Counted from the first letter of the stretch, positions 755-64,000 are shown. The stretch: 64,000 nucleotides of DNA from Candidatus Levyibacteriota bacterium (GCA_038254115.1 JBBSGK010000001.1:2713-66712), one strand, 5' to 3'. Translations and numbers: made by a program. The notes: generated from the letters alone by a model not told the origin.

Positions 755-756
755 AT

Positions 757-1548: not shown

Positions 1549-1550
1549 AT

Positions 1551-26008: not shown

Positions 26009-26013
26009 AACAT

Positions 26014-28079: not shown

Positions 28080-28080
28080 T

Positions 28081-28965: not shown

Positions 28966-30035
28966 AAATTTCCGTTGGAATCTTGGGTGCAACAGGTATG
29001 GTCGGACAGAGGTTTATCGAGCTTCTTTCCAATCATCCCTGGTTTGAAATAAAAGCTTTGGCTGCATCACCCCGCTCTGCCGGTAAAACATATGAAGAAG
29101 CAGTATCCGGAAAATGGTTTTCAAAAAATCCAATCCCCCAAAATATTTCATCGATAAAGGTTTTAGCAGTTGAGGATGATATAGACACTATCAGTAAAGA
29201 TGTACAGCTCGTTTTTTCGGCCCTTGATTTGGATAGTGAAAAAGTTAAAAAAATTGAGGAGGATTATGCATCTAAAGGCGTTTTTGTTGTTTCAAATAAT
29301 TCCGCAAACAGGTGGACTCCAGATGTTCCTATGATAATTCCTGAGATAAATCCTGAGCATTTAGAAATTATTAATACGCAAAGAACAAACAGAGGATTGA
29401 AAAGCGGAGGAATAGTAGTAAAGTCCAATTGCTCGATTCAATCTTATGTTCCGGTTCTTCATGCATGGTCCGAGTTTGAACCAACTGAGGTTATAGTGAC
29501 GACAAATCAAGCGATTTCGGGTGCTGGAAAAACATTTGAGACTTGGCCCGAAATAATTGACAACGTAATTCCATACATAGGTGGAGAGGAAGAAAAAAGT
29601 GAGAAAGAGCCTTTGAAGATTTGGGGAGAAATAAAAAATGGAAAAATTGAAAATGCAAAACTACCTGTTATTTCAGCAACATGTATTAGGGTCGCTGTAA
29701 CGGACGGTCACATGGCAGCGGTTAGTGTGAAGTTTAAAAATAAACCGACTAAAGATCAATTGATAAGCGCACTAGTAAATTATAAAAATCCAATTGCGGA
29801 TCTTGATCTGCCATCATCCCCAAAGATATTTCTAAAATATTTTGAAGAGGAAGATAGACCTCAGACCAATCTAGATCGCAATACCGGAAGAGGAATGACA
29901 ATATGCATTGGAAGAATAAGAAATGATCAAGTTCTTGATTATAAATTTGTTGCGTTGTCCCACAATACAATAAGGGGTGCAGCAGGCGGCGCAGTATTGG
30001 CAGCAGAGTTATTAAAAGCAAAAGGTTATATATAA
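28962..30035 (+). CDS. asd: aspartate-semialdehyde dehydrogenase
   Basis: MKISVGILGATGMVGQRF…, with the active-site Cys in …KSNCSIQSYVP…. It overlaps the dapA stop. Confidence 0.85.
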   Translation: MKISVGILGATGMVGQRFIELLSNHPWFEIKALAASPRSAGKTYEEAVSGKWFSKNPIPQNISSIKVLAVEDDIDTISKDVQLVFSALDLDSEKVKKIEEDYASKGVFVVSNNSANRWTPDVPMIIPEINPEHLEIINTQRTNRGLKSGGIVVKSNCSIQSYVPVLHAWSEFEPTEVIVTTNQAISGAGKTFETWPEIIDNVIPYIGGEEEKSEKEPLKIWGEIKNGKIENAKLPVISATCIRVAVTDGHMAAVSVKFKNKPTKDQLISALVNYKNPIADLDLPSSPKIFLKYFEEEDRPQTNLDRNTGRGMTICIGRIRNDQVLDYKFVALSHNTIRGAAGGAVLAAELLKAKGYI

Positions 30036-30038
30036 ATT

Positions 30039-31340
30039 ATGGCAAAAGAAAAAAAGCAAGTTAATGTTGGATTAATTGGTTTTGGTAATATCGGAAAAGG
30101 CGTTGTAAGATATTTCCAAGAAGGACATGGAAAAAACTTCAATATCCATCTCAAGCGGATTGCAGTCCGGGACCTTACTAAGCAAAGAGAAATAGATGTT
30201 GAGCTGACGGACAAAGTTGATGATATTTTTAACGATCCGGAAATAGACATCGTCGTTGAGTTGATTGGAGGGCTGGATCCTGCAAAGCAATATATAATCA
30301 AATCCATAGAAAAAGGAAAAAGTGTAGTTACTGCCAATAAAGCAGTTATGTCGCGTTTTACTAAAGAATTATTTGACGTTGCACGGGAAAACAATGTGGA
30401 TCTTGCTTTTGAAGCGGCTGTTGGAGGTGGAATACCCATAATTAATACCCTTAACCGTTACAAGGGAGAAAAAATTGAGCGGGTTCTAGGAGTATTAAAT
30501 GGAACTACAAATTTTGTTCTTACGCAAATGGAACAGGGATTGGACTTTAATACCGCTATAAAAATAGCACAAGAAAAAGGATTTGCCGAAGCTGATCACA
30601 TTCTCGATACAGGCGGGTTTGATACCAGGGACAAGTTGGCACTTATCGCCTCCCTTATTTTTAATTCGCAAGTTGATCCCGAAAAGATCCAAACACACGG
30701 AATAACAGAAATTACTCCTGTGGATATTGACTTTGCGGATAAATATAAAGTAGCGGAAGGAGGACGGGGATATGCGATAAAACTCCTTGCAATAGCCGAG
30801 CGGCGAGACGGTGATGTTGAGTTAAGTGTTGGTCCTGCTTTGATAAGCCGTGATCATCCGTTGGCATCAATAAGGGATGAGGTCAATGCAGTTTACGTTG
30901 AGGGAGAGCTTGCCGGTCCTCAAACATTCTCCGGTAAAGGTGCCGGTACAAATCCGACTTCAAGCGCAGTTGTTTCAGATATTCTCCGGTTGGCAAACAA
31001 TATGCAAAGGGGAGTTGTGGATGAATTGCCGGATCTTAATTCAAAAGTCAGCTACATAAAACACGAAAAGATGGAACAAAAGGGTTATATACGTGTTAAT
31101 CTCAAGCATCAACCCGGCAGCCTTTATGCGGTTACAGGGATTCTGTCTCAGCATGGACTAAATATTGATGATTCAATTCAGAGAGGAGATTACGGTTACG
31201 ATATAGGAAAGGTCAGGTTTGTTCCTGATATTATTACACTCGAACCGGCCCCGGTCAAGGTCATAGAGAAAGTATTAGCCGAGTTGAGTAAATCGGATAG
31301 AGTGGACGGGGATCCGCTTTTTATGAATATTGAGGAGTAA
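30039..31340 (+). CDS. hom: homoserine dehydrogenase with a C-terminal ACT domain
   Basis: …VNVGLIGFGNIGKGV… and …LNGTTNFVLTQME… are the Hom catalytic domain. The C-terminus is ACT-like. Confidence 0.8.
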   Translation: MAKEKKQVNVGLIGFGNIGKGVVRYFQEGHGKNFNIHLKRIAVRDLTKQREIDVELTDKVDDIFNDPEIDIVVELIGGLDPAKQYIIKSIEKGKSVVTANKAVMSRFTKELFDVARENNVDLAFEAAVGGGIPIINTLNRYKGEKIERVLGVLNGTTNFVLTQMEQGLDFNTAIKIAQEKGFAEADHILDTGGFDTRDKLALIASLIFNSQVDPEKIQTHGITEITPVDIDFADKYKVAEGGRGYAIKLLAIAERRDGDVELSVGPALISRDHPLASIRDEVNAVYVEGELAGPQTFSGKGAGTNPTSSAVVSDILRLANNMQRGVVDELPDLNSKVSYIKHEKMEQKGYIRVNLKHQPGSLYAVTGILSQHGLNIDDSIQRGDYGYDIGKVRFVPDIITLEPAPVKVIEKVLAELSKSDRVDGDPLFMNIEE

Positions 31341-31354
31341 GTTATTGAAAATCT

Positions 31355-32875
31355 ATGTTTTGGGCTGATGAAGTTGCTGAAAAATTAAAAAAAAGAAAAT
31401 TGCCTCTTGAATGGGTTGATGATATGAAGACGCCTTCGGGAAGAATTCACGTTGGGTCTTTGTTTGGCGTTGTTTTTCATGACTTAGTCTATAAAGCCTT
31501 GAAAGACCAAGGTGTTAAAGCAAAGTACACCTACGTTTTTGAAAATCACGATCCGATGGATGATATCCCATCATATTTGCCCCGGGAGAAATTTGAGAAG
31601 TATCTCGGTATGCCTCTTTTTAAAATTCCATCACCTGTAAAAGGTTTTGAAAACTTCGCCCAATATTATGCCTTTGAATTTAAAGAAACGTTTAATAAGC
31701 TCGGGTCTGATCCCGAAATAATCTGGACAAAGGATTTGTATACATCAGGCAAAATGAATAAAGGAATTAAACGCGTTCTGGATAGTTCAGAAGAAATTAG
31801 GAAAATCTATAAAGAAATGTATAAAAAAGAGATTGCAACTGATTGGTATCCGTTTCAGGTTTATTGTGAGAAATGCGGAAAAGTTTCAACAACCCGGGTT
31901 TATAATTGGGACGGGGAATTTGTTTATTACCGTTGTCCTGTTGCCGCAACAAAATGGACTAAAGGATGTGGAAATGAGGGGAAAACATCACCATTTAGTG
32001 ATGAAAAAGGTATGAAAGGAAAAATGCCTTGGAAAGTTGAATGGCCGGTAAAGTGGCAGGCAATTGGTGTGACGGTTGAGGGAGCGGGTAAAGACCATAT
32101 GAGTCGTGGGGGGTCGCACGATTTGGCAACGCAAGTTGCAGAACGAGTGCTGAAGTGCCCTGTTCCATATCCGGTCAGTTACGAATTTATGTTGATAGGT
32201 GGCCGGAAAATGTCTTCATCAAAAGGTCATGGTTTTGCGGCAGGAGATATATTGGAAATACTTCCTCCTGATTTAGCCCGGTTCTTGATAGTAAAAATGG
32301 ATATTAAACAACAGACAAATTTTGATCCGACTGAAAAAGATACTGTGCCAAAATTATTTGATGATTACCAAAAAGCAGCAGACGCTTACTTCGATAAGAT
32401 TGATAAGAATTTGGCAAGAGTTTTTGAACTGTCGCAAGTTGGTGAAATTAAAAAACCGCCAACTGTAAGATTTTCCGTTCTTGCCCAGTGGGTGCAGATG
32501 CCAAATATGGCGGATAAGATTAGGGAAGAGGGTTTGGAAGAGTGGGTAAAATATGCAAAAGTATGGCTTGAAAAATACGCGCCTGAATCGGAAAAGTTTG
32601 AGCTGCAAGAAGCTTTGCCAGAAGCAGTAAAAGACTTAACAAATAAGCAAAAAGAATTATTAAAAAAAATCTCAGCAGAGATTGATAGAAAATGGGATCC
32701 TGAAGAATTTCAGACACGGATTTATGAGATAGGTAAAGAATTGGGATTAAACGGTAAGGAAACATTTGCCGCAATCTACTTATCGCTTCTTGGAAAAGAC
32801 CACGGACCAAAGGCAGCATGGCTTATTTTGTCAGCCGGCAAAAAGTTTATAAAAAAAAGATTTAATGAATTTTAG
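31355..32875 (+). CDS. lysK: lysyl-tRNA synthetase, class I (archaeal-type LysRS-1)
   Basis: It has the HIGH-type motif …SGRIHVGSL… and the KMSKS-type motif …KMSSSKG…. Its length and overall pattern match class I LysRS rather than class II. Confidence 0.8.
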   Translation: MFWADEVAEKLKKRKLPLEWVDDMKTPSGRIHVGSLFGVVFHDLVYKALKDQGVKAKYTYVFENHDPMDDIPSYLPREKFEKYLGMPLFKIPSPVKGFENFAQYYAFEFKETFNKLGSDPEIIWTKDLYTSGKMNKGIKRVLDSSEEIRKIYKEMYKKEIATDWYPFQVYCEKCGKVSTTRVYNWDGEFVYYRCPVAATKWTKGCGNEGKTSPFSDEKGMKGKMPWKVEWPVKWQAIGVTVEGAGKDHMSRGGSHDLATQVAERVLKCPVPYPVSYEFMLIGGRKMSSSKGHGFAAGDILEILPPDLARFLIVKMDIKQQTNFDPTEKDTVPKLFDDYQKAADAYFDKIDKNLARVFELSQVGEIKKPPTVRFSVLAQWVQMPNMADKIREEGLEEWVKYAKVWLEKYAPESEKFELQEALPEAVKDLTNKQKELLKKISAEIDRKWDPEEFQTRIYEIGKELGLNGKETFAAIYLSLLGKDHGPKAAWLILSAGKKFIKKRFNEF

Positions 32876-44343: not shown

Positions 44344-44712
44344 TTAAATTTTTACTTCAGGATCATTGAGGGAGCTTGGCCACATAGCCGGATCGCCGTG
44401 GATATTTTGTGTCGTACTGACGAGGACAGCCTTTTCTGACGGATTGTGGTTTGATACCCGGAGCCGGTCTTCGTAGACTCTTCTCGCAAATTTTTGAAGC
44501 TGGTAAGCTTTTGGTTCACCTGTCATTCCATCAAAGTGTTTTTGTATCGCTTCCTTTGTAGCCCAAACCTCATAATTCCGGACAGGTTTATTGTCCTCGC
44601 CAACATGCCCAATGCTCATTTTGTATAGATTGCCTTTGGGACTGTACTTCATGCCACGGCTCACATTTATGGTTCCACGGGGCGGTAATGGTTGAAGAAC
44701 TCCAATATTCAT
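44344..44712 (-). CDS. hypothetical protein
   Basis: It is a 122-aa ORF divergent from hrcA with no recognised motifs. Confidence 0.45.
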   Translation of the reverse strand: MNIGVLQPLPPRGTINVSRGMKYSPKGNLYKMSIGHVGEDNKPVRNYEVWATKEAIQKHFDGMTGEPKAYQLQKFARRVYEDRLRVSNHNPSEKAVLVSTTQNIHGDPAMWPSSLNDPEVKI

Positions 44713-44752
44713 ACAAGTATTTTTCTTAGTTTAGCGTATCACATTATCTTGG

Positions 44753-44791
44753 ACTTGACAAGATTTGGCACTCATGGTATATTATTGCTAA
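44753..44791 (+). promoter_or_regulatory. sigma-A-type promoter (TTGACA-N17-TATATT) overlapping a CIRCE-like HrcA operator
   Basis: TTGGCACTC-N9-TATTGCTAA (44765-44791) resembles the CIRCE consensus TTAGCACTC-N9-GAGTGCTAA. The TTGACA at 44753 and TATATT at about 44776 would drive hrcA. Confidence 0.5.
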
Positions 44792-44805
44792 TCCAAATTA
44801 AGTTT

Positions 44806-45537
44806 ATGCATAATCTAACTCAACGCCAAATTGAAATTCTCAAAAGTATCATTGAGGAATACATCGAATCTGCAGAAGCGGTAGGATCTGAAACTATTGA
44901 GAAAAAACATAGTGTTAGCGCCAGTCCGGCAACAATCCGAAATGAAATGGTAAAGCTTGCAGAATATGGATACATCAAAAAACCGCATTCATCAGCTGGG
45001 CGTGTTCCGACAGGTTCGGGGCTTAAATTCTATGTACGTGAGCTGATGAAGGAAAAAGAGCTTTCAACCGTTGAAGAAGTTGCACTGAAAGAAAAAGTTT
45101 GGGATTACCGCGATAAAATGCAGCGTTTTTTGAAAGAAACAACAAAGTCTCTAGCTACCAAAACCAATGCCCTGGCAATAGCAACTACCAATGAGGGGGA
45201 TATATTTTGCTCCGGCTATGCAAATATTCTGGAAATGCCGGAATTTTTTGATATCGATGTCACAAAGAATTTACTCGAGGCGCTGGATGAATATGATTGT
45301 TTTGAAAATATTTTTGCAAATACACAGGGCGGTTCGGAGATTCATGTTTTGATTGAAGATGAGCTTGGAGATAGCCTGCAAGGACCTTATGGATTTATCT
45401 TCACCGAATATGCAACACCTTTAAATATTCAGGGCAGAATTGGAGTATTGGGGCCGGCTAGACTTGCATATACCTCGATAATTCCAACTGTGCGTTATTT
45501 TGGAGAAATGATTAGAGAGAGCGCTAAGGGGTGGTAA
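44806..45537 (+). CDS. hrcA: heat-inducible transcription repressor HrcA
   Basis: MHNLTQRQIEILKSIIEEYIESAEAVGSETI… is a winged-helix N-terminus. The ORF track's N-terminal extension 44692- covers the promoter and is unlikely. Confidence 0.85.
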   Translation: MHNLTQRQIEILKSIIEEYIESAEAVGSETIEKKHSVSASPATIRNEMVKLAEYGYIKKPHSSAGRVPTGSGLKFYVRELMKEKELSTVEEVALKEKVWDYRDKMQRFLKETTKSLATKTNALAIATTNEGDIFCSGYANILEMPEFFDIDVTKNLLEALDEYDCFENIFANTQGGSEIHVLIEDELGDSLQGPYGFIFTEYATPLNIQGRIGVLGPARLAYTSIIPTVRYFGEMIRESAKGW

Positions 45538-45570: not shown

Positions 45571-46083
45571 ATGACAAAGAAAAATGAAAAGAAAATAGAA
45601 GATATAGATGGAGCAGACGAGATTGATTCAGACGCAATTGTGGAAGAAGCAGGTGAAGAAGGTGATTCGGAAAGTGAAGATTTAAGGGTAAAGCTTGTGG
45701 AATTTGACAATAACTATAAAAGAGCGCTTGCAGATTATCAAAATTTGCAGAAACGGGTAAGTGAGGAAAGACGGGATTTGATATTGGCAGCGAACAAAGA
45801 TTTGCTCTTGCGAATTTTATCAGTTTTGGATACACTAGTACTTGCAAATCATCACGACGGAAGTGAAGGTTTGAAAGTCGCTATCAAGCAATTTTTGGAT
45901 GTATTGAAAGCGGAGGGAGTAACACAAATAGAAACGGCCGGAAAAGAGTTTGATCCTCATCTGATGGAGGCAGTAGCAATTGACTCAGGAGAAGAGAATA
46001 AAGTCTTAGAAGAAATGCGCTCAGGATTTGTATTGAATGAAAAGGTTTTGCGTCCGGCGCAAGTAAAGGTAGGAAAGGAATAA
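45571..46083 (+). CDS. grpE: nucleotide exchange factor GrpE
   Basis: It has an acidic N-terminus, a coiled coil …YKRALADYQNLQKR… and a GrpE C-terminal beta domain. Confidence 0.85.
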   Translation: MTKKNEKKIEDIDGADEIDSDAIVEEAGEEGDSESEDLRVKLVEFDNNYKRALADYQNLQKRVSEERRDLILAANKDLLLRILSVLDTLVLANHHDGSEGLKVAIKQFLDVLKAEGVTQIETAGKEFDPHLMEAVAIDSGEENKVLEEMRSGFVLNEKVLRPAQVKVGKE

Positions 46084-46089
46084 AATAAT

Positions 46090-48012
46090 ATGGGAAAAAT
46101 AATTGGAATAGATTTAGGAACAACAAATTCATGCGTTGCAGTAATGGAGGGTGGAAGTCCCAAAGTTATCCATTCGGCTGAAGGACGTAACACAATTCCC
46201 TCAGTTGTGGATCCGATCTCACACATTGTCGGTGATGTTGCAAAGCGCCAGATGGCTCTTAAGCCAAAAAGAACAATTTTCTCAATCAAGAGATTAATTG
46301 GGCGAAAGTTTAGCGATAAAACAGTTAAGGAAGATATCAAATGGCTTCCATACACTGTTAAGGCCGGGCGCGACGACATGGCAGTTGTTGAAGTTGAGGG
46401 GAAAACATTTACTCCTCAGGAGCTCTCAGCCCAAATTCTCCAAAAAATCAAAGCAGATGCGGAATCGTATCTTGGTGATAAAGTAACACAAGCTGTTATT
46501 ACAGTTCCTGCATATTTTGATGACAGTGAGCGTCAGGCAACCAAGCAAGCCGGTGAAATCGCGGGTCTTGAGGTATTGCGTATCATTAACGAGCCGACTG
46601 CAGCCGCGCTTGCATACGGACTGGATAAGAAAAACGCCCACACGATAGCAGTTTATGACTTGGGAGGGGGAACATTTGATATTTCTATTCTTGAGCTTGG
46701 AGAAGGCGTTTATCAAGTTAAATCAACCAATGGTGATACGCATCTTGGAGGAGATGATTTTGACCAAAAGATAATTAATTATCTCGCGGATGAATTCCAA
46801 AAAGAAAACGGAATTGATCTGAGAAAAGACCCCCAAGCGCTTCAAAGACTGAAAGAATCAGCAGAAAAAGCAAAAATTGAACTTTCAAGCAGTCAGGAAG
46901 CATCAATAAATCAGCCGTTTATTACCCAGGGAAAAGACGGACCGCTTCATCTTACCTTGAGTTTGTCCCGCTCAAAGCTTGAGCAAATCGTTGATGATCT
47001 GATCCAAAAAACACTAATTCCTTTAGAAAAAGCAGTCAAAGATGCTGGAGTTAAAGTGTCAGATGTCGAGGAAATTATTTTAGTTGGTGGAATGACCCGC
47101 ATGCCTAAAGTGGCTGAAGCAGTTGAAAAATTCTTTGGTAAAGAAGCCAACCGTTCAGTCAATCCTGATGAAGTTGTCGCAATCGGAGCCGCCGTACAGG
47201 CAGGAGTTTTGGGCGGTGAGGTCAAAGACGTATTGCTTTTGGATGTCACACCTTTGACTCTCGGGATTGAAACTCTCGGCAGTGTTTCAACTCCTTTGAT
47301 TGAGCGCAATACAACAATCCCGACCTCGAAATCTCAAACATTTTCAACGGCTGGTGATAATCAGACACAGGTTGAAATAAATGTTCTGCAGGGAGAGAGA
47401 CCAATGGCAGCAGACAATAAATCTTTGGGCCGATTTGATCTGCAAGGTATTCCTCCTGCTCCCCGTGGCGTCCCACAAGTAGAGGTCACGTTTGACTTGG
47501 ATGCCAACGGGATTTTGAATGTGTCCGCAAAAGACAAGGCAACCGGTAAGGAGAACAAAATCCAAATTACTGGGTCAACGGGGCTTTCAAAAGAAGAAGT
47601 TGAGAAAATGACCAAGGATGCTGAGGTAAATGCCAAAGAGGATGAGGAGAAAAAAGGAAAAATAGAAGCACGCAATCACGCGGATTCACTTATCTTTACT
47701 TCTGAAAAATCGCTGAAGGACGCAGGCGATAAATTAGCAGAAGATATCAAAAAAGAAGTTGAGGAAAAGATCAAAGCCCTAAAAGATATTTTGGATAGTG
47801 GTGCAAAAGAGGAATTGGAATCAAAAACCAACGAACTTTCAGAATCACTTCAAAAAATAGGGCAGGCTACATATCAAGAGGGACAAAAAGCGCAAGAAGA
47901 GCCGGAAATTGAGACAGAGGAAAAAGAGGGCAAAACGGAGACAGATGGTACAAAAGAGACAAAGGACAAAAAGGATAAAGACGAACCTGTTGAAGGGGAA
48001 GTTGTAGAATAA
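46090..48012 (+). CDS. dnaK: molecular chaperone DnaK (Hsp70)
   Basis: [14 protein letters not shown]…, …[12 protein letters not shown]… and …[11 protein letters not shown]… are Hsp70 motifs. Confidence 0.95.
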
Positions 48013-48077: not shown

Positions 48078-48941
48078 ATGGCAGACAAAGATTATTACAG
48101 TGTACTTGGAGTTTCCAAATCGGCATCGGCCGATGAGATAAAAAAGGCCTACCGCAAACTTGCCTTGGAATATCATCCTGACCGGAATAAAGGTAAAGAG
48201 GCAGGAGCTAAATTCAAAGAAGTGACCAAGGCCTACGAAGTCTTATCCAACGAGGAAAAAAGGAAAACTTATGATCAGGTGGGACATTCAGGTTTTGAGC
48301 AAGGAGGATTTGGCGGAGCAGGAGGACCAGCTGGCGGGCAGCAGGGCGGACAATATGGGCCATTTTCATATACCTATTCGGCAGGTGGAAATGGAGCAAA
48401 TTTTGACTTTGGAGGATTCTCGGATCCTTTTGAAATATTTGAGCAGTTTTTTGGCGGAGCGTCTCCATTCGGTTCGCATGAAAGACGGGATTCTTATTCT
48501 ATGAGAATTAGTTTTGATGAAGCAGTCCATGGCGCAGAAAAACAGGTAAATATAAAAGGAAAAAGTCAGAAGATAAAAATCCCCCAAGGCGTAGACCGCG
48601 GATCTCGCATAAGATTTGGTGATTACGACGTAGTAATAGATGTAGGTCAAAGTGATAAATTTGGACGTGAAGGATATAATATAGTTTCAGAAAAAGAGAT
48701 TTCTTTTCCTCAGGCAGCACTTGGTGGTGAGATGAAGGTTGAGACAATTGATGGGGAAGTAAAAATCCGGATACCTGCCGGTACACAGCCTGAGACTGTA
48801 ATCCGCCTCGCGGGTAGGGGGGTAAAGCATGTGCAGGGAAATGGGCGGGGAGATCACTATGTCAGGATAAAGATAACAATCCCCAAAAAACTAACACGTC
48901 AACAAAAAGAACTCCTGGAAAAGCTCCAAAACTCCACATAA
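48078..48941 (+). CDS. dnaJ: J-domain co-chaperone (type II DnaJ/CbpA-like, lacking the Cys-rich zinc-finger region)
   Basis: It has a J-domain with HPD (…YHPDRNKG…) and a G/F-rich linker. There are no CxxCxGxG repeats, but the C-terminal substrate-binding domains are present. Confidence 0.8.
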
Positions 48942-48992: not shown

Positions 48993-49691
48993 ATGGCAAT
49001 GGAAATGGAGGACTTAGCAGGAAGAGGTCGGGGTACACATCCTGTTTGGGCGAAAGAACTCGCAAGACTTGCCCGTCTTTTTAGAGAAGCAGGTGGGCCT
49101 GAACGCTTTCCTGTAGAGGAAGAGTTGGGCGCTAGGCAATTTTCTAAAGAGCAGATGGTAGGGTTAAAAGGAGTAGGTTTTGATTTTTTTGTAGACATAG
49201 AGTCAAAAACCGTTGAGCAGTTATTGGAGGAAGCGCCTGGACGCATTAAAAAAGGTGATAAACGTATGAAGTTGCCGGCCGGATCGCCTAAAGTTCGTAA
49301 TGTTGCCGTACGAACAGCAGGGTTAGTTATCCCTGGTAGCAATAACTTGTCATTCCACCAGCAAAGTGAGAAATTAGCAGAGTGGGAGCAGGAAATTAGG
49401 AGTAGGCAGTTGGAAAGAGGAACTCTTGATGGAGTTGGTTTTGGAATTGGACACCCTTCAGAGCATTTGCAGATTGATCTTGCCTATCAAAATGCAAATA
49501 GTGGGCTGCCTCTTTATTCAGAAATATTTGCATGCAGCGATTCCCCGGATGAGCCCAATGCTGATAATGCGATAATTATTGGGCGGATTGATCCTAATGA
49601 TCCGCCGACAATTTATAATGATCCCGGTGTAGCTCACCGCCGGGTTTATGTGGCTCCAGTTGCTTATCCACTCCCAGTATTAAGAAAATAA
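48993..49691 (+). CDS. hypothetical protein in a compositionally distinct, GC-richer segment
   Basis: It is a 232-aa ORF rich in Gly/Arg/Pro (…IDPNDPPTIYNDPGVAHRRVYVAPV…). The sequence is visibly more GC-rich than its flanks, which also produces a spurious antisense ORF at 48968..49342. Confidence 0.45.
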   Translation: MAMEMEDLAGRGRGTHPVWAKELARLARLFREAGGPERFPVEEELGARQFSKEQMVGLKGVGFDFFVDIESKTVEQLLEEAPGRIKKGDKRMKLPAGSPKVRNVAVRTAGLVIPGSNNLSFHQQSEKLAEWEQEIRSRQLERGTLDGVGFGIGHPSEHLQIDLAYQNANSGLPLYSEIFACSDSPDEPNADNAIIIGRIDPNDPPTIYNDPGVAHRRVYVAPVAYPLPVLRK

Positions 49692-49842: not shown

Positions 49843-50139
49843 ATGGCACTTTGCGGAGTAAACGAGGTAAGTACTGACTTTGGTTGTTTTAAAAATGATC
49901 CGATCGGATTTGTTCAGCAATTCTATGGTATTGGTTTGGCATTTGTAGGAGCTGTGTCCCTAATCGCAATCATCATCGGCGGTTATACTATCATGACATC
50001 GCAAGGTGATCCTCAGCGCGTGCGGTCAGGAAAATCCTGGATTTTTTACGCTATTGGGGGATTACTTCTTGCAATTTTTGGATTTGTTATTATTCAGACA
50101 ATTGCAGGGGGTATATTGAAGGTTCCAGGTTTTCAATAG
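49843..50139 (+). CDS. small two-TM hairpin protein with TrbC/VirB2-type pilin-like topology (tentative)
   Basis: It is 98 aa: hydrophobic helix YGIGLAFVGAVSLIAIIIGGYTIM, short polar loop TSQGDPQRVRSGKS, hydrophobic helix WIFYAIGGLLLAIFGFVIIQTIAGGIL. It lies 6 nt upstream of the giant membrane protein. Confidence 0.4.
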   Translation: MALCGVNEVSTDFGCFKNDPIGFVQQFYGIGLAFVGAVSLIAIIIGGYTIMTSQGDPQRVRSGKSWIFYAIGGLLLAIFGFVIIQTIAGGILKVPGFQ

Positions 50140-50145
50140 TTAGAT

Positions 50146-53100
50146 ATGAAAAAATTTCTGCCCGCTTTTTTATTAAGTATTAGTTTTTTTGCTATACTTT
50201 TCATTTTTCCGCATAAAGTTCATGCTGATCCCGTTACGATAGATAAAGCACCTGTTACTGCTGATGACAAATGGGTTATAGATCCTGAGGTCACATTTAT
50301 CGGTAAAAACGCAGCAAGGTCGGGTAATCTATTAAACTTCACACTTCTAAATTATCATTGGGTCTGCGTAAAACAGCTTCCTAGCGGACAGTGTGATGAT
50401 AGTAAAAATCCTATTGCCGCGGTCTGGTTAACAACCGTTACATATATCGTTGTACCGCTTCTTTTTGTAGTTATTCTTGCAACGGCAATCATAATTATTG
50501 TGACCCGCGGACGCAGTATTACCGTTATGCGTTTTCTGCCGCGGTTTGTTGCGGTTATCATATTGATATTTTTCTCTTTTGCGCTTCTTCAATTTTTCTA
50601 TCAATTTGTAGATGTAATTCAGGGATTTTTCCTGCGGTCTCATTCAGGAGCTTGCCCTCCTGACTGTATTTCGAATGCTGATTTGCTGTATGTAGGATGG
50701 AAATATCAGGATTTCCAAGGCCTTAGGTTATTGGGGGATAAAAATACAGAATCGGCTTTTATCACTCTACTTCTTACCAAATTAACAGCCCTTACTTACT
50801 TTGTGATGGTTGGATTACTTTTTCTTAGAAAAGTAATTCTTTGGCTTTTTATAATTGTATCTCCAATTTTTCCACTTCTTCTACTATATTATCCAGTTAG
50901 AAATACCGGTAAAATCTGGATTGGAGAATTCTTCCGCTGGTTACTTTATGCTCCACTATTTGCCATTTTTCTAAAAGGGCTCGTATCGTTATGGAGAGCA
51001 GGAATTCCACTAGTATTTACAACGGTTTCCCATAGCGACCCAAACCTTATTGTATACCCGACAGCCGTTAATATTCTTTTGGGCGGACCCAAAGAATTTG
51101 TAACCCTCGGCAATAGCATCAATCTCACAGAAACATTTGCTTTGTATGTCGTATCCCTCCTTATGTTGTGGGGAGTAATAATATTGCCATGGATACTTTT
51201 GCAGATTTTTCTTGATTATGCATCCAATTTGGGAGTTGGAGATAGCGCAGTAATGAAGAACATGATTAATATGGTTAATAATAGGCAGGGAGTGCCACCA
51301 TCTCCATCATCACATCCTCCTGCAGGCGGGGGAGCGACTATAAATCTTCCATTCACCAAGAAATTCAGTATGCCGGTTCCACCGAGCGCTCCGACCGGTA
51401 CAGCCCGGGAAATTCCTGTGTCTTCCTCTAAATTCTCAACAACCGCATTTATGCCATCGGCGCAGGTCAAGGCTCAGGTATTAACTCTTACGAACATGTC
51501 TCTTCCAACGATGCGCGATATTGCCAAATATGATACATCCCTCATATCCCGCGATAGCTCTACTAAGAAAGAAGCTTTGACTATCAGGGACAATCTTATC
51601 AAGATCGGCAATCCGGAATCGGCAACGTCAACCAGCGATAAGGAAAGATATGTTGAAATCCGGGAAAAACTAACACAGGAAAGTACTAAGGGAAATACTC
51701 TGGCAACATCTATTCTAAGCGCTGCGAGTACAGTTTCAAGACGAAGTAGTCAGGCATCAACATCTCAGATTAAGAGTATGCTTACTCAGATTGCCAATCC
51801 ACAAGCCGCGTCTGCTGCGGGAGCAACATCTGTTATCAACAGGGAAAAACTATCGAAGTTGAATGAATCCCTGACGAAAGAGAAAAAAGAAGGCAACACT
51901 TTGGCTGCTTCTATCCTTTCGGTAAACGAAAAAACATCCTCAGCCGAAATCGAAAAACTCCAAGAGAAGATATTGGATGCAAAGACAAAGGGAGAACCTG
52001 TTGGAGTACAGCTTGCAAATGCGTTACAGAAGAAAGAAGCATTGCCTCTTGCAAACAGAGTCCAAACTGTAAGTAAAGAAGACTACCAAGCAGTAAAGGA
52101 TATGTGGAAAGAGAATTACAAAAATCTTGAGGTTCCTCAAGGAATGGCAGGGACAAGGGAAGAATGGGTAAAGGATGATATAGCAAAGATAGACAGTATT
52201 ATCGGACTTTTGGATTCAAAGGATGATGAAAAGATTGCTCAGGGAATGGAAGAGGTCTCAAGCATTTTGCCTTTCCTTTTGGTTGGCGGTTTCTCACAGA
52301 CGGAAATTATTTCTTATCTTAAAGCCAAACAGGATGCTGCAAAAGAGGTAACTGTGGAATTGACGCAGGAAGAAGAAGATAAAGTTTCGGTTTCGGTAAA
52401 AAAGACCGCAACTGCCCAGCAGACTATGTCAGCAACTATCCCGGAGTCATCAGAAGATGATACAGATGGTTCGGATTTGAGTAACGCTTCTGCAAAAGCT
52501 GGCTCCAAGGTCATTCCTAATGCGTCGGTTGATATTTTAAATATGGCCAATCTTGAGCTGCCCAAATTAACAGACATCGTGAAATACGAAATGAGGCATC
52601 TTACAAAAGATAAAACCGAGTCTGAAAGAATAGAAAAAATGCACGGAGTGCTCGAGAGAATTGGAAATCCTGCATCTATTCAGTCTGAAGCGGAGCGGAA
52701 TCAATACGAGACTCTCCGTGAAAAGCTTGGGGAAGAAAGCCTAAGTGGCAATGCTACGGCATCCACAATTCTTTCTGCTGTTTCGAGGTTAACTCAGACA
52801 ACATCGGACATTGATGCGACTCTTGTTGAACTAAAAACAATCCTCAAACAAATTGCGAATCCACAAAACTTAGAGTCTAGTGAAGACCGTGATTATTACA
52901 CCCGGCTTCACCAATATCTTGAAAATGAAATTAAACAAAATAGTAGTACCGTTTCCCAAAGTATTCTTTCGGTAAACGACACCACCAAGATGTCAGATAT
53001 TCAAAATATTAAGGAACAACTGAGCATAGGTAATAATGCAGGAAGTCCCGCGCTTCCGCAATTGACGTCCGCAGTAAATGATGTTTCAAGAGCAAGGCAG

Positions 53101-53793
53101 TTGAGATCAGTGATCTCACAGATTCTTGCACCTGCTGAAATAAAATCGCAAGTTGATAAAAAGACCTATACAACTATCAAAAAATCAATAGACGATGCAA
53201 GTAAAAAGGGCGATTCTTTAGCTGCCTCATTACTATCAATCAATTCTAAAACTCCGGACATTGTCCTTACTCAAATGCACAAAAAACTTGTAGATGCAGG
53301 AAATAAAGGTGACGAAACGGCAAAGACAATTCTTGCGCAAGTTTCAGAACCACTCGCTTTATCCAGCGTAAGCCGTTTGCAGGAAGTAAAGCCTGAAGAA
53401 TACGAAGAGGCAAAAGAGCTATGGAAGAAAGCATATATGCAGTATTTTGTTCCCTCAGGATTTACAGAAGATGTTAAAGGAAGACTAGAATGGATAAATA
53501 ACGATGCCCTCGATATTGAAGACACAATTGGGCTCTTGCAGTCACCGGACGCAGAAAAGAAAAACACGGGACTAAAAAAAGTTTCAAGTATATTGCCATT
53601 CCTTCTTCTAGGAGGTTTCTCAACTTCTGAAATGATTCAATATCTTCAAACTAAACTGGATGCGGCAAAGGAAGCAATTACAGCTATAAATGCGGAGGAA
53701 GATAAATCAGTCCAGGTTGCTGTAAAAAAAGATGAAAAGGCTGAAGATAAAGCAATGAGTGAGGAAGTTCCTGATGAAGAAGAAAAGAAATAA
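50146..53793 (+). CDS. giant membrane protein with a signal peptide, an N-terminal polytopic (about 6-7 TM, VirB6/TrbL-like topology, tentative) domain and a roughly 830-aa hydrophilic C-terminal region built from repeated helical modules
   Basis: The signal peptide is MKKFLPAFLLSISFFAILFIFPHKVHA, followed by TM clusters through about aa 370. The C-terminal region contains two roughly 300-390-aa super-repeats, each with 2-3 copies of a roughly 75-aa module (…NP…K[DE][KR]Y…L…KGN.LA.SILS[VI]N[DE].T…) and a conserved roughly 90-aa end module (…WK..Y…VP.G…IGLL.S.D.EK…VSSILPFLL.GGFS..E.I.YL..K.DAAKE). Confidence 0.5.
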   Translation: MKKFLPAFLLSISFFAILFIFPHKVHADPVTIDKAPVTADDKWVIDPEVTFIGKNAARSGNLLNFTLLNYHWVCVKQLPSGQCDDSKNPIAAVWLTTVTYIVVPLLFVVILATAIIIIVTRGRSITVMRFLPRFVAVIILIFFSFALLQFFYQFVDVIQGFFLRSHSGACPPDCISNADLLYVGWKYQDFQGLRLLGDKNTESAFITLLLTKLTALTYFVMVGLLFLRKVILWLFIIVSPIFPLLLLYYPVRNTGKIWIGEFFRWLLYAPLFAIFLKGLVSLWRAGIPLVFTTVSHSDPNLIVYPTAVNILLGGPKEFVTLGNSINLTETFALYVVSLLMLWGVIILPWILLQIFLDYASNLGVGDSAVMKNMINMVNNRQGVPPSPSSHPPAGGGATINLPFTKKFSMPVPPSAPTGTAREIPVSSSKFSTTAFMPSAQVKAQVLTLTNMSLPTMRDIAKYDTSLISRDSSTKKEALTIRDNLIKIGNPESATSTSDKERYVEIREKLTQESTKGNTLATSILSAASTVSRRSSQASTSQIKSMLTQIANPQAASAAGATSVINREKLSKLNESLTKEKKEGNTLAASILSVNEKTSSAEIEKLQEKILDAKTKGEPVGVQLANALQKKEALPLANRVQTVSKEDYQAVKDMWKENYKNLEVPQGMAGTREEWVKDDIAKIDSIIGLLDSKDDEKIAQGMEEVSSILPFLLVGGFSQTEIISYLKAKQDAAKEVTVELTQEEEDKVSVSVKKTATAQQTMSATIPESSEDDTDGSDLSNASAKAGSKVIPNASVDILNMANLELPKLTDIVKYEMRHLTKDKTESERIEKMHGVLERIGNPASIQSEAERNQYETLREKLGEESLSGNATASTILSAVSRLTQTTSDIDATLVELKTILKQIANPQNLESSEDRDYYTRLHQYLENEIKQNSSTVSQSILSVNDTTKMSDIQNIKEQLSIGNNAGSPALPQLTSAVNDVSRARQLRSVISQILAPAEIKSQVDKKTYTTIKKSIDDASKKGDSLAASLLSINSKTPDIVLTQMHKKLVDAGNKGDETAKTILAQVSEPLALSSVSRLQEVKPEEYEEAKELWKKAYMQYFVPSGFTEDVKGRLEWINNDALDIEDTIGLLQSPDAEKKNTGLKKVSSILPFLLLGGFSTSEMIQYLQTKLDAAKEAITAINAEEDKSVQVAVKKDEKAEDKAMSEEVPDEEEKK

Positions 53794-53870: not shown

Positions 53871-56800
53871 ATGTTTGGAACTTTTTTTAATTCAAAAAAG
53901 CCGGACGAAGCAGATGCAAGCAATATTCCTGCCCAGCCGATAACGGATCAGAATCCACCGGTTGTCGGATTAGCGCAAGCTCCTGCTTCGGCGCCTTTAT
54001 CTCAAGAGCCTGTTTCCCCAAGTCCTGTGTCAACGCAAGCGCCCAATCATGATCTCAGTATTCAGAATTCAGCAGTTAACCAACAACCAGTGAGTGTCGC
54101 ACCTCAATCTATAAATAATCCGGCCGTGCGGGCTGATACATCGGCTCTTTCTCATCTCGATCCAAGGGCGGGACAAGTCCTAACACATGCGCAGGAGGAG
54201 ACAAAAAGGATTAAGCAGCAATTTATAGAGCCTTCTCAAATTATATTTGGTCTATTGTATGATGAGCAGGTTTATAAGCTTCTCTCCGAATTCCAAGCTG
54301 ATGGTGGAGCTCTTTCCAAAGAAATACAGTCGAAGGAAGTAATGGGAGTTTTTCGAAGCCAGCCGGCTCTCAGTAAAGTAGCGATGGCTGTTTTTGATCA
54401 GGCGTATAAAGATGCCAAAATGCGTGGATCAAACTTCGTAACACCTGAGGATTTATTGATAGTATTATTTGATCCGCAGTTTGGCGTATCCGGCTCTTTG
54501 GAGTCCCGCGGTCTTAAGAAAGAAGCAGTTGTTGAAAAAGTTTCAAAAAATCCCAATCTAAATTTTGGCAAAAAAACCATTCTTGAAAAATACGGAGTCG
54601 ATCTGAATGAAGAAGCAAGAGCGGGTAAACTTGATCCAATCGCCGGCCGTGACGAAGAAATTGACAGAATCATTCACATCCTTTTGCGTAGGACAAAAAA
54701 CAATCCGATTATAATTGGTGAGACGGGGGTTGGTAAAACCGCAATTGTTGAAGGATTAGCACAAAAAATAGTAGCAGGACAAGTTCCAAAAGATTTGGCC
54801 GAAAAAAGAGTTTTTCAGCTCGATGTTGCCTCTTTGGTGGCCGGGGCCTCTCACCGCGGAGAATTTGAAGAAAGACTAAGAGGAGTTATCAATGAAGTGC
54901 TGGGATCAGGCAACAAGATAATTCTTTTTATTGATGAAATTCACTCCCTCATGGGAACAGGTGAGGAGGGGATGAATGCTGCGAACATTATAAAACCCCA
55001 TCTTGCCAGAGGCCATTTACAGTTAATTGGCGCTACAACAACTATTGAATACAGAAGAAATTTTGAAAAAGATAAAGCTTTTGAGCGCCGTTTTCAGCCC
55101 GTTACAGCCGAGGAACCATCTGAGGAACACGCTTTTGAGATGCTTAAAGTTATTAGACCAAAGTATGAAAAATTTCACAAGATTACTATTTCTGATGATA
55201 CTCTGATGGAATGCGTGAAACTCTCCAAAAAATACATTGGGGAACGCTATCTACCAGACAAAGCTGTGGATTTGCTTGATGAAGCAGGGTCTGAGGTACA
55301 CCTTCAGGCGGATGAAGGTAAAAGAGGCGATAATCAGGTTAAAAAAACTGATATTGAAAAAGTGGTTAGCGGATGGACAGGAATTCCAATTACCAAATTG
55401 ACTGAGGATGAATCGGAAAAGCTTCTAAAATTGGAAGACAGAATACACCATAGATTGATAGATCAGATGGAGGCAGTTGTTGCTGTATCAGAAGCAGTCC
55501 GGCGCGGACGGATTGGTTTGGCTGCTGCTAACCGGCCGATTGCATCGTTCGTTTTCCTAGGCCCTACTGGGGTCGGTAAAACAGAGCTTGCTAAAACACT
55601 CGCCGAGCTTCTCTTTGGCCGTGATGATGCAATGGCAAGGCTTGATATGTCAGAGTATATGGAGAAGCATGAAGTGGCGAAGCTTATCGGAGCGCCTCCG
55701 GGGTATGTCGGATATGAAGAGGGAGGTCAATTGACAGAGGCGGTCAGGAAAAAGCCGTATTCCATTGTTTTGTTTGACGAGATAGAAAAAGCTCATCCTG
55801 ATGTTTTCAATATTTTGCTCCAGCTTCTTGAGGACGGACGGCTTACGGATAATAAAGGAAATACAATATCATTTAAAAACACTATTGTCATTTGTACATC
55901 AAACATCGGGAGCTCGCTGATTCAGGAAAAGCTTAGCCAGGTTGATTCCAAGGAGAAAAAATCAGCTGAAGAATCCGCAAAGACATTTAAAGAGCTCTCA
56001 GAAGTTGTCAAGCAGGAGCTAATCAAATTTTTCCGGCCTGAATTACTTAACCGTTTTGACGATGTTGTGATTTTCAAACCCCTTCTTCAGGAGCATATGG
56101 CAGGAATTGCCCGATTGGGAATTGCCAAAACAGCAGGTCTTCTAAAAGAGCAGGGATTTACTCTTCAGATTACCGAAAAAGGTGTCGCGCAACTCGCAAA
56201 AGACGGTTATGATCCGGTATATGGCGCCAGACCTCTTAGGCGTTTGATCCAGACAGCTATAGAAAATCCAATTGCTCTTGAGATCATTTCCAAAAAATTT
56301 GAGGCCGGGGATACTATCGTTGTTGATTACAATGATACCAACAATGAATTTACATTTTCCAAGGGTCAGGATAGTGTGAATGAATCGGAAAATCTAAAAA
56401 AGACACTCCTTGAGATAAATAACCCCGGCGCCATATCAGATACTGCCAAGAAAGATAAGTATACAAGACTTCATGATGAATTGGTTCCAGCAAGTAAACA
56501 GGGAGATAAACTTTCGGAAGCAATCCTTTCGGTAAACGAAGGCACATCTGATGAAGTGATTAAAAAAATATTGGAAGATCTGAAAATAGCGCAAAATAAA
56601 GGGAATCAGCTTGCGTCCGATATAATGGCCATAGTGGGTGCGGAAAATGTCAAAGAAGCTGAGATAACTCACGATGCAGCTCCGGTTACAAAATTTAAGA
56701 AAACCCTGCAACAGGTAATAAATCCTCTCTACCTTGCGGCACCGGGCAATAAAGATAAGTTTAGCGCATTATATGATAAGCTCACTACTGCAAATCAGGA

Positions 56801-57557
56801 AAATAATGCATTGGCAAAACCAATCTTATCAATCACAGACATAACTCCTGACTCGGATATACAGCAATTGAAAACTCAGCTTGAAAGTGCAAAGGCGCAA
56901 GGTGATCCTTTGGCGATTGAAATTTTAGATACTATTGAGGCAGGCATAAAAACAGAAGAGGTGGCAAAACTCAAAGAAACATTGCTTCTAATAGTTAATC
57001 CAATTAGCGCACAAATACCAATTGAGAAGGAGAAGTTTATTGCCTTGCATGATAAAATTTCTCAGGCCAGCGAAAAAGGCAACGCTCTGGCGGCATCAAT
57101 TCTGGCCATTAACGATACAACTTCAGACGATGCTTTGATTCAGCTTAAAAATCAGTTGGAGGCTGCATTGGCTCAGAATGATGAAGTAGCATTATTGGTA
57201 TTAAATGCCGAATCTGCGCCGGGTGTTGTAGATCAACCAACGCAGGAAAATCCTGAACAGGCTTATCCTTTTGGTATGGGTCAGCAAGAAGAGGCAGCTG
57301 CCACTCAATTAACTCCGGATCCCGCCGCTCAAGGGGCGGTTTTACAGGAAGGCACAGTTCCTCAACCAGTACCGGTTACTCCGTCTCTTAGCACGCCTAC
57401 AGTAGAACAACCAAGTGGTGGATCTGCTTTTCAGCCCCCATCTTCTACGCCACAGGCTGGTGTAAGCGCCGGGATGAGCGCGCTGAACGAGATTTTACAA
57501 AGAGACGCCGATCCTTTTGGTAATCCAGTTGAGCCCGAGGAGGAAAGGGTCAGATAA
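53871..57557 (+). CDS. atypical Clp/Hsp100 AAA+ ATPase with a low-complexity N-terminus, two Clp_N repeats, D1 and D2 domains, no M-domain, no ClpP-binding IG[FL] loop, and a roughly 400-aa C-terminal extension carrying the same repeat module as the upstream membrane protein
   Basis: The D1 Walker A is [16 protein letters not shown], the D2 Walker A is [16 protein letters not shown], and the sensor region …[10 protein letters not shown]… is present. The D1-D2 linker is only about 35 aa. The C-terminus has three copies of …I.NP……K[DE]K[YF]..L.D.L…..GN.LA..ILS[IV]N[DE].T.D…I..LK.QLE.A…GD..A..IL…. Confidence 0.8.
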
Positions 57558-62964: not shown

Positions 62965-62971
62965 ACAAAAC

Positions 62972-64000
62972 ATGATTGATCACGTAAAAATATATCTTTA
63001 CTACCGCAGAGCCCTAATACGGAGCATACGGCTTGTTGTTTTTGCAATTTTACTCTTTACCATTCTTAATCTATTTGCGCAGAATATTTCTCCTAAATTT
63101 CCATTATTTCTTTTTAATCTATTTGTTATGTTTGAAGTCTTTTTTCACTTCAAGATAAGCAAAAGCAGGCCAACTCTTCTTATTTCTAAAAACTCAGGCA
63201 AGGACCTTCCTGCCGGCAAGGCAGGTATCTATCAATCTTTTACCATGCATGCATTGTCCCCATTTGTTACAGATCAAAAAACAAGCGGAATTATTAAAAA
63301 GTTAATTAAATATCCTCAGGTAAAACTATTTCTGCAAAAAGCCAACATAACCCAAAAGGATTTGCCGTTTGTGGATTTGGATAAAGAAACTCTCGCAAAA
63401 AGCGCGTTTGATACAGCAAGTACATTTAAGGGTAAATTTGTCACAACAGTTGATATACTCGTTGCTTATCTTTTTCTGATTGAACCCGAGAAAAAATTGC
63501 TTTTTGCAAAGCAACTTAAATCTGAAGACTTATACAATATTTCCGAATGGATCAGACTTGAATATCCTGATGAGGAAAGCCCCAAAAAGTTCCGTGTACG
63601 TTTTGAGGGAGGAGGAATCGGGGAGAGTCTCGTTTCCGGGTGGACACCTGAAACAAAAAAATACACAGCGTTATTTACCTCTTTTGCGCTTAAATATACT
63701 CCACTTATACGCGGGCGGGAAAATGAATTCAAGACAATGATTGAAGCTTTGATAAAAGTAGAAAATAATAATGTGCTTTTGGTTGGGGATATCGGGGCTG
63801 GAAAAGAGAATTTGGTACGCGCTCTTGCCTACTTCAGTTTCGAGGGAGAATTGGGAGCGTATCTTAATTACAAACGGATTTTGGAACTTTTGGTCGGCGC
63901 ATTGACAGCGGGTGCTACCAATAGGTCAGAGTTGGAGGAAAGGCTTCAATCAATAATCGCTGAAATTTCCCATGCGCAGGATATCTTGCTGTATGTTCCT
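62972..64000 (+). CDS. membrane-anchored Clp/Hsp100-like AAA+ ATPase, 5' portion; the ORF runs off the window end and is absent from the ORF track
   Basis: The open frame from ATG 62972 has no stop through 64000. It encodes two N-terminal TM helices, Clp_N-like repeats (…LAKSAFDTASTFKGKFVTTVDILVAYL…, …LKSEDLYNISEWIR…) and a ClpB D1-like …NNVLLVGDIGAGKENLVRALA…RSELEERLQSIIAEISHAQDILLYVP…. The Walker A is atypical, GAGKE instead of GVGKT. Confidence 0.7.
   Translation, partial: MIDHVKIYLYYRRALIRSIRLVVFAILLFTILNLFAQNISPKFPLFLFNLFVMFEVFFHFKISKSRPTLLISKNSGKDLPAGKAGIYQSFTMHALSPFVTDQKTSGIIKKLIKYPQVKLFLQKANITQKDLPFVDLDKETLAKSAFDTASTFKGKFVTTVDILVAYLFLIEPEKKLLFAKQLKSEDLYNISEWIRLEYPDEESPKKFRVRFEGGGIGESLVSGWTPETKKYTALFTSFALKYTPLIRGRENEFKTMIEALIKVENNNVLLVGDIGAGKENLVRALAYFSFEGELGAYLNYKRILELLVGALTAGATNRSELEERLQSIIAEISHAQDILLYVP

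Follow-up and report, generated by a model that had tools for sequence, protein, structure and literature searches.

A Clp ATPase without M-domain or ClpP loop in a Levyibacteriota dnaK gene cluster and its putative link to a VirB2/VirB6-like membrane module

We analysed a stretch of 64,000 nucleotides of DNA from Candidatus Levyibacteriota bacterium (GCA_038254115.1, JBBSGK010000001.1:2713-66712; hereafter the window), in which an open reading frame (ORF) at 53871..57557 encodes a double-ring Hsp100 ATPase of 1228 amino acids (aa), referred to here as Clp; this ORF and the other features of its gene cluster lie on the strand presented (+). Judged by its sequence, Clp appears to fall into the ClpB/ClpC clade of Hsp100 ATPases as a lineage-specific member, present in Levybacteria and related Microgenomatia within the Patescibacteria. 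On balance, we favour for it the role of a lineage-specific, ClpP-independent threading ATPase that works with a VirB2/VirB6-like membrane module and with the DnaK system.

A third of the protein (residues 819-1228) is a C-terminal extension composed of three repeats and a second low-complexity tail, and the main clue to its function is the homology of this extension to the tail encoded by the upstream ORF at 50146-53793 (1215 aa; blastp E 9e-26). An initial annotation of Clp had left out both this part of the protein and its homology to the upstream gene.

Domain architecture of Clp

The protein begins with a tail (53871..54170) in which the motif M[FL]GxxF[NST]QKK, conserved family-wide at the extreme N-terminus, precedes a low-complexity Pro/Gln/Ala/Ser-rich linker; residues 1-100 are enriched in Pro, Ala, Ser and Gln, in agreement with the 100-aa N-terminal tail of the initial annotation. 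A double-repeat Clp_N domain follows (54171..54620; Pfam Clp_N, ClpB profile and alignment) and then a D1 module of the AAA+ type (ATPases associated with diverse cellular activities; 54633..55328, from Pfam, motifs and alignment), a D1-D2 junction of ClpA length without M-domain (55281..55391; profiles and alignment), and a D2 AAA+ module with its D2-small domain (55428..56324; Pfam and alignment). Pfam recognises Clp_N (residues 107-154), the D1 AAA domain, AAA_lid_9 as a truncated match (70 of 104 profile positions), AAA_2 in D2, and ClpB_D2-small, with which the recognised part ends at residue 818. Beyond it, blastp, a hidden Markov model (HMM) and AlphaFold2 (AF2) delimit three all-helical repeats of ~85 aa (56385..57209), located individually at 56385-56642, 56682-56945 and 56958-57209 (residues 839-924, 938-1025 and 1030-1113).

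The Clp_N domain and the intact Walker motifs that had been reported for both rings are indeed present: Walker A reads GETGVGKT (residue 283) and GPTGVGKT (564), Walker B ILFIDE (351) and IVLFDE (632), and the arginine fingers (AFERRF, LLNRFD) and sensor-2 (GARPLRR) are found as well. The pore loops differ between the rings. The D2 loop (55689-55727; motif and alignment) keeps an intact GYVG that is invariant among the homologues, whereas the D1 loop (54840-54869) has [10 protein letters not shown] in place of AGAKYRGEFE, its KYRG being changed to SHRG and the canonical Tyr to His, a replacement shared by 118 of 120 Clp homologues. More than 100 homologues were found at 59-81% identity, all of the same architecture. 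In their source records they go by 'AAA family ATPase', 'ClpC' or 'ClpB', while the window proteins carry no recorded name.

The protein closes with a disordered Pro/Gln-rich tail (57210..57554), in which short motifs ([17 protein letters not shown] and an acidic end) recur in some relatives. Motifs of the AYPFG type are present in 47 of the 120 homologues and GMxALNE in 22; as to the acidic ends, the longer of the members inspected have ...EEIE, several closer relatives have ...E(S/D)(D/E)GExI[SA], and the window protein ends in EPEEERVR. These recurring motifs may serve for docking.

Absence of the M-domain and of the ClpP loop

The two halves of Clp (residues 1-486 and 487-830) were scanned separately against NCBIfam. 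On the ClpB profile, which spans the whole N-domain (residues 99-481 against profile positions 4-401), the match of the first half ends at position 401 and that of the second begins at 526, skipping 124 positions (402-525). The TssH/ClpV profile is interrupted in the same manner between 414 and 528 (113 positions skipped, 415-527), the ClpK profile between 511 and 575 (63 skipped) and the ClpG profile between 488 and 554 (65 skipped), while on the ClpA profile the halves are contiguous (415 and 418). Likewise, ClpB and ClpC chains from the PDB align with Clp in two stretches and ClpA chains in one. E. coli ClpA and ClpB and the ClpV of a type VI secretion system (T6SS), ECs_0223, were taken as references from RefSeq genomes and aligned by MAFFT; in the alignment with ClpA and ClpB, Clp shows a clean deletion of ~120 aa at the M-domain site. 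The distance from LPDKAxD to WTGIP is 34 or 36 aa in 100 of the 120 homologues, namely those in which both anchor motifs were found. A cryptic M-domain was ruled out by the alignment of the D1-D2 junction, and the idea that the C-terminal repeats are a relocated M-domain was rejected after an hhalign comparison with that of ClpB (probability 1.7%).

At the position of the ClpA 'SIGLI' motif, Clp carries a charged, Gly-free insertion, [13 protein letters not shown], of 13 aa relative to ClpB (55947-55985). The alignment places it in a charged D2 loop without hydrophobic tripeptide (55911-56030), a stretch that exceeds its ClpB and ClpC counterparts by 13 aa and ~5 aa, respectively. The tripeptide [ILVM]G[FLM] occurs in the D2 loop of none of the 72 homologues in which this loop could be delimited, and a cryptic ClpP loop was excluded for the window Clp and the homologues examined. 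A tblastn search with E. coli ClpP gave zero matches in the 64-kb window and in 80 related loci of 10-21 kb; the scanned window ORFs of at least 150 aa matched no ClpP family, and no ClpX was found within the window.

Both peptides quoted in the initial annotation are present, one in the junction (residues 471-507) and the other in the D2 loop (residues 681-720), and the comparison with ClpA, ClpB, ClpC and ClpV that it had proposed brought out neither an overlooked M-domain nor an IGF loop. Since the M-domain is lost, canonical DnaK docking and repression are unavailable to Clp, and since the ClpP-docking tripeptide is missing, Clp is not a protease partner; with the M-domain and any loop of the IGF, IGL or VGF type both absent, it cannot work in either canonical mode, as had been concluded before.

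ClpB is the top-scoring profile for both halves (395 and 483 bits), and identity is highest to E. coli ClpB (54.5% in D1 and 56.7% in D2). Clp nevertheless scores below every curated NCBIfam family cut-off: 858.2 bits against 1232.1 for ClpB (TIGR03346), 695.5 against 993.15 for ClpA (TIGR02639) and 651.8 against 884.95 for ClpV/TssH (TIGR03345). The junction is ClpA-like and the sequence ClpB/ClpC-like. The suggestion that the architecture is closest to ClpV did not survive: the E. coli O157 ClpV (ECs_0223) has an M-like insert even longer than that of ClpB, its N-domain is 15% identical to that of Clp, and T6SS families gave no Pfam match among the scanned window ORFs of at least 150 aa and none in the contexts listed for four relatives. 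The sole ClpV-like trait of Clp is the missing Tyr of the D1 pore loop.

A helical repeat shared with the upstream gene

A profile of the C-terminal repeat was searched against all 1.84 billion (1.84e9) cluster representatives, and the matching proteins were classified with Clp-core and VirB6-like probes. The search returned 142 proteins, comprising 121 VirB6-like proteins, two Clp proteins and 19 short ones that matched neither probe and look like fragments of Clp or VirB6-like proteins; few Clp representatives are expected, since clustering at 50% identity collapses the family. Two neighbouring families, Clp and VirB6-like, thus have the repeat to themselves. By the HMM, Clp homologues contain 3-6 copies of it and the VirB6-like partners upstream of them 2-10 or more. 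AF2 folded the three Clp repeats confidently into helical bundles (pLDDT 89.3, pTM 0.67), and a Foldseek search of the PDB with this model found no relative (best E 1.2). A known family was sought both for the repeat and for the VirB6-like protein, and the window sequences themselves gave no Pfam or NCBIfam match.

The VirB6-like and VirB2-like neighbours

Upstream of clp, the ORF at 50146..53793 probably encodes a polytopic VirB6/TrbL-like membrane protein, an assignment based on family-level PF04610 matches and on AF2/Foldseek. Its signal peptide and transmembrane (TM) domain (residues 1-361) are followed by the long tail, in which the repeats occupy residues 480-531, 541-625, 829-888, 895-968 and 985-1066. 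PF04610 (TrbL/VirB6) is matched by 12 of 28 family members (best E 8.3e-7), and three of six members tested score above its cut-off of 25.9 bits; the window copy gives no match at E <= 0.1 and reaches no Pfam threshold. The homologues are proteins of Patescibacteria, among them one with the name 'type IV secretion system protein' and several for which PF04610 matches had been precomputed. With an AF2 model of residues 1-400, of moderate confidence (pLDDT 66.8), the top two among 350,542 PDB chains, and the sole meaningful matches, were 7o3v_F and 7o3v_G, that is, TrwI/VirB6 of the R388 type IV secretion system (T4SS), with Foldseek probabilities of 0.96 and 0.85, a TM-score of 0.49 on the target and a weak E-value of 0.16.

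The tail of the VirB6-like protein is also internally duplicated, with two tandem modules that each consist of ~85-aa repeats and a conserved C-module of ~130 aa (residues ~640-770 and ~1075-1200, motif SSILPFLL[VL]GGFS.[ST]E[IM]I.YL). Its relatives range from ~700 to 2790 aa in length, with up to 22 matched repeat stretches in a single protein (P0241).

Immediately before the VirB6-like gene lies a 98-aa, two-TM ORF (49843..50139) related to the VirB2-like T4SS pilin family PF18895. The window protein has two hydrophobic helices and scores 21.6 bits (E 2.4e-4), under the cut-off of 26.6; nine of ten orthologues match PF18895, two of them above the cut-off.

Gene order and regulation

Upstream of these genes lie hrcA (44692..45537, with the probable real start near 44818; TIGR00331, E 3e-55, match from ORF residue 43), grpE (45571..46083; NCBIfam GrpE models), dnaK (46090..48012; PRK00290, 961 bits, above cut-off) and a gene for a short J-protein of 287 aa (48078..48941), whose best full-length match is a 291-position DnaJ model. 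The standard DnaJ model matches this J-protein in two pieces, and from its sequence it is probably a CbpA-like class B protein, without Zn-finger region. Between dnaJ and the pilin-like gene, a 232-aa Arg/Gly-rich ORF (48993-49691) has no Pfam or NCBIfam match, is not at this position in any of the four relatives inspected and falls within the region of the window that is richest in GC (0.42); this ORF may have been inserted.

Species-representative genomes, scanned with an alignment of the VirB6-like protein, gave 143 relatives, and the following counts refer to the best 80 of these 143. Among the loci with informative record titles, nearly all are from Levybacteria, Levyibacteriota or Patescibacteria. 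In 57 of 61 informative loci (and in two more with split matches), the VirB6-like gene is followed by clp on its own strand, and this order persists where dnaJ has moved. The pilin-like gene adjoins the VirB6-like gene in 72 of 75 loci, and dnaK precedes these genes on their strand in 53 of 58. The trio stands after dnaJ in 39 loci (dnaK-dnaJ-[pilin-VirB6-Clp]) and between dnaK and dnaJ in 14 (dnaK-[pilin-VirB6-Clp]-dnaJ). Four distant relatives share the arrangement hrcA-grpE-dnaK-dnaJ-[pilin-like]-[VirB6-like]-[Clp]-(small gene)-[second Clp-like ATPase]-nusA-infB. As far as conserved gene order goes, these counts, including the 14 loci with clp inside the chaperone genes, contradict the previous statement that clp is not part of the hrcA-dnaK operon.

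Many record titles (loci L011, L013-L015, L019-L022 and others) read 'uncultured Gammaproteobacteria', 'Lysobacterales', 'Limnocylindrales', 'Sulfotelmatobacter' or 'Acidiferrales'; for such metagenome-assembled genomes with a Levybacteria-type locus, the taxonomy is probably wrong or the bins are contaminated.

Just 5' of the probable real hrcA start, a promoter-like TTGACA-17-TATATT with an extended -10 overlaps an inverted repeat resembling CIRCE (controlling inverted repeat of chaperone expression; 44755..44791). This is the sole CIRCE-like site in the window, and a site with at most three mismatches is present at the same position before hrcA in 34 of 57 related loci. A separate heat-shock operator for clp was considered and rejected, as the CIRCE-like sites that were found are all at or near hrcA, none of them preceding a pilin-like, VirB6-like or clp gene. 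Between the VirB6-like gene and clp, a terminator-like site was looked for and not detected.

Other genes of the window

The start of a second Clp-like ATPase (62966..64000, +; tblastn, 57% identity to the copy at locus L002) runs off the end of the window; in relatives, this gene usually lies just 3' of the first clp. Its orthologues are membrane-anchored proteins of ~800 aa, with a degenerate D1 and without the Tyr of the D2 pore loop. The full copy at L002 (14323-16743) has a hydrophobic N-terminus, D1 Walker motifs that look degenerate (GDIGSGKE, ILYIPEF), no M-domain and a D2 pore loop, GAPPGAGTE, without Tyr. This second ATPase may assist the first Clp as a partner that does not itself thread, or may anchor it to the membrane.

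Elsewhere, four membrane-protein paralogues of the ABC-2 family (ABC2_membrane_6) stand in tandem with overlapping ORF ends (119-3120), and a fusion protein of 924 aa, made of a phosphoketolase (XFP_N, XFP, XFP_C) and a CoA-binding domain at its C-terminus, overlaps the start of an AMP-binding enzyme that resembles acetyl-CoA synthetase (16254-20779). A complete aspartate-family block (23535-32875) comprises an aminotransferase, a diaminopimelate-type decarboxylase, aspartokinase, DapB, DapA, Asd and homoserine dehydrogenase and is followed by a class I lysyl-tRNA synthetase; it points to a greater biosynthetic capacity than Patescibacteria usually get credit for.

Discussion

We propose that Clp forms a hexamer that would thread polypeptides mainly via D2, and that its specificity and location would be set by the family-specific parts at the D2 or exit end, namely the charged 13-aa insertion and the C-terminal helical repeats. 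As the repeat is otherwise present only in the tail of the upstream VirB6-like protein, the repeats would tether the ATPase to this protein, directly or through a common partner, although this sequence-derived tether is putative. In Hsp100 rings the polypeptide leaves at the D2 face, so that additions at this end fit a delivery towards a partner. At the T4SS-like membrane module the ATPase would unfold, extract or remodel proteins, and it would be co-expressed with the HrcA-controlled GrpE, DnaK and DnaJ, whose part would be to pass clients on or to refold them; canonical M-domain control would play no part. Its task there may be to feed the channel or to provide membrane quality control. Full-text literature searches yielded no description of this Clp family.

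Several observations weigh against this proposal. A promoter-like TTGACT-17-TAGTAT lies in the 77-nt gap 5' of clp, which may also be transcribed on its own. The repeat is absent from 20 of the 120 Clp homologues (~890-980 aa), and one of these that was checked (P0106) still adjoins a VirB6-like gene; the repeat therefore cannot be the sole link between Clp and the VirB6-like protein. The VirB6 identity of the window copy is putative, drawn from family-level evidence and the weak Foldseek E-value (0.16), and VirB4 and VirD4 families had no match in the scanned window ORFs (at least 150 aa), nor were they found in the contexts listed for the four relatives. Finally, hydropathy gives six hydrophobic segments past the signal peptide, in which case the tail of the VirB6-like protein would be extracellular, whereas the AF2 model gives five long helices instead, which would leave it inside, as is the tail of A. 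tumefaciens VirB6; positive-inside counts together with hydropathy made no choice between five and six TM segments.

Clp could instead be a cytosolic disaggregase, stand-alone or DnaK-assisted, that replaces ClpB in this lineage. The VirB6-like adjacency would then have no mechanistic meaning, and aggregate binding or regulation of activity would be the task of the C-terminal repeats and low-complexity tails, as it is of the extra domains of ClpG and ClpL. The nearest sequence relatives of Clp are ClpB and ClpC, and its gene is embedded in a hrcA-grpE-dnaK-dnaJ cluster with a CIRCE-like operator at its head; moreover, a sixth of the homologues (20 of 120) do without the repeats, which match no known interaction fold. 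A mere substitute for ClpB, however, leaves aside that among 1.84e9 representatives the repeat is confined to the Clp and VirB6-like families and that the VirB6-like gene has clp behind it in 57-59 of 61 loci, even where dnaJ has moved. Loss of the M-domain abolishes DnaK-coupled disaggregation by ClpB, and with the M-domain gone a mode different from the DnaK-coupled one would be needed; the D1 pore-loop Tyr is lost too. We consider this replacement of ClpB a possible explanation, though not the probable one.

A translocon motor would be a specific sub-case of the role that we favour: the D2 face of the hexamer would sit on the VirB6-like channel and thread unfolded proteins through it and through a VirB2-like conduit, giving, by analogy with HSP101 on EXP2, an Hsp100-powered export derived from a T4SS. 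The 13-aa insertion and the C-terminal repeats, which all lie at the D2/exit end, on the side that docks ClpP in ClpA and ClpC, are compatible with it, as are the conserved pilin/VirB6/Clp trio and the presence of PTEX (Plasmodium translocon of exported proteins) HSP101 (6e10, 6e11) among the structural relatives. Docking, substrates and signal are nevertheless all putative, and the tail of the VirB6-like protein is placed outside by hydropathy and inside by the AF2 model. Known T4SSs run on VirB4- and VirD4-type ATPases, and the cluster also holds the second, membrane-anchored Clp-like protein without pore-loop Tyr. A 2025 survey of T4SS genes in Patescibacteria, according to which VirB6 is hard to detect in Microgenomatia, makes no mention of Clp, AAA, DnaK or a chaperone (PMC12102498). 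In this specific form the idea seems to us unlikely.

That Clp is a ClpP-dependent unfoldase of the ClpA/ClpC type docking via a non-canonical surface is very improbable: the D1-D2 junction has the length of that of ClpA and the D2 loop about that of ClpC, but this loop is charged and Gly-free, with no [ILVM]G[FLM] in the homologues examined, the tblastn search detected no ClpP in the window or in the 80 loci, and the ClpA equivalog score (695) is well under its cut-off (993). The view of Clp as a ClpV-like unfoldase dedicated to recycling a contractile sheath, which the initial annotation had suggested, can practically be set aside. The Tyr-less loop [10 protein letters not shown] resembles AGASVKGEFE of ClpV and neither protein has a ClpP loop, but the long M-like insert of ClpV is absent, the TssH score is 652 against a cut-off of 885, the N-domain identity is 15%, and no Pfam T6SS match was obtained in the scanned window ORFs or in the contexts of the four relatives.

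We thus retain, as the reading we favour, a threading ATPase acting with the VirB2/VirB6-like module and the DnaK system. Hsp100 proteins are sorted by two add-ons, the M-domain for coupling to Hsp70 and the IGF-type loop for coupling to ClpP; here is a conserved family of more than 100 homologues that has neither and carries, inside a dnaK operon, a private repeat shared with a T4SS-like neighbour. Database names such as 'ClpC', 'ClpB' and 'AAA family ATPase' are not function-level assignments for it. T4SS-like and pilus systems are believed to underlie the host-dependent lifestyle of Patescibacteria, whose proteostasis machinery is, to our knowledge, essentially unstudied; in Clp, these bacteria would offer a concrete example of an AAA+ unfoldase that has been redirected to a membrane module.

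Comparison with known systems

With ClpB (E. coli b2592; TIGR03346), Clp has in common the Clp_N domain, two active AAA+ rings, the GYVG loop in D2, the lack of a ClpP loop and the genomic link to the DnaK system. It differs in the missing M-domain, the change of the D1 Tyr to His and the 13-aa insertion in the D2 loop, and it is longer by an N-terminal tail of 100 aa and a C-terminal repeat extension of 400 aa. ClpA (E. coli b0882; TIGR02639) resembles it in the short D1-D2 junction without M-domain and in aligning in a single stretch, but Clp is without the IGL loop and the identity is lower (45.7% and 38.8%).

ClpV/TssH (E. coli O157 ECs_0223; TIGR03345) is likewise a ClpP-independent dedicated unfoldase, without ClpP loop and with a D1 loop that has no aromatic residue (AGAS..GEFE); unlike Clp, it has a long M-like insert and an N-domain unrelated in sequence, and it belongs to a T6SS context, of which the scanned window ORFs and the contexts of the four relatives show none. 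The stand-alone disaggregases ClpG/ClpK and ClpL, which act without ClpP and without DnaK, are also Hsp100s with lineage-specific extra domains. However, their profiles keep a middle region, of which Clp skips 63-65 positions, Clp scores 657 and 628 against a cut-off of 1900, and their extra domains are N-terminal and unrelated to the Clp repeat.

The upstream protein resembles VirB6/TrbL (R388 TrwI, 7o3v) in its polytopic domain, the PF04610 matches of its family members, its top PDB fold match (TrwI, E 0.16) and the adjacent gene for a VirB2-like pilin. Its long hydrophilic C-terminal extension also recalls the 'extended VirB6' of Rickettsiales, which has such an extension. In contrast to VirB6/TrbL, it has an extracellular domain at the N-terminus and a signal peptide that is cleavable, the repeat shared with Clp makes up its tail, and no VirB4/VirD4 was found nearby.

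In the PTEX of Plasmodium, a hexamer of the ClpB-type HSP101 sits with its D2 face on the membrane pore EXP2 and powers protein export. HSP101 is a sequence relative of Clp, and the complex (PDB 6e10, 6e11) is a precedent for docking, but HSP101 keeps its M-domain, the partners PTEX150 and EXP2 are unrelated to VirB6, and the docking of Clp is putative. It is an unlikely, if conceivable, idea that ultrasmall bacteria of the candidate phyla radiation (CPR) have an Hsp100-powered export machine, in which a ClpB-derived hexamer would be docked on a VirB6-like channel through the private helical repeats and the remodelled ClpP-loop position, would receive clients from DnaK, DnaJ and GrpE of its own operon, and would thread them, unfolded, through the channel and a VirB2-like conduit. 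If true, this machine would be a type of secretion system without a VirB4-type motor and a bacterial counterpart of the Plasmodium PTEX.

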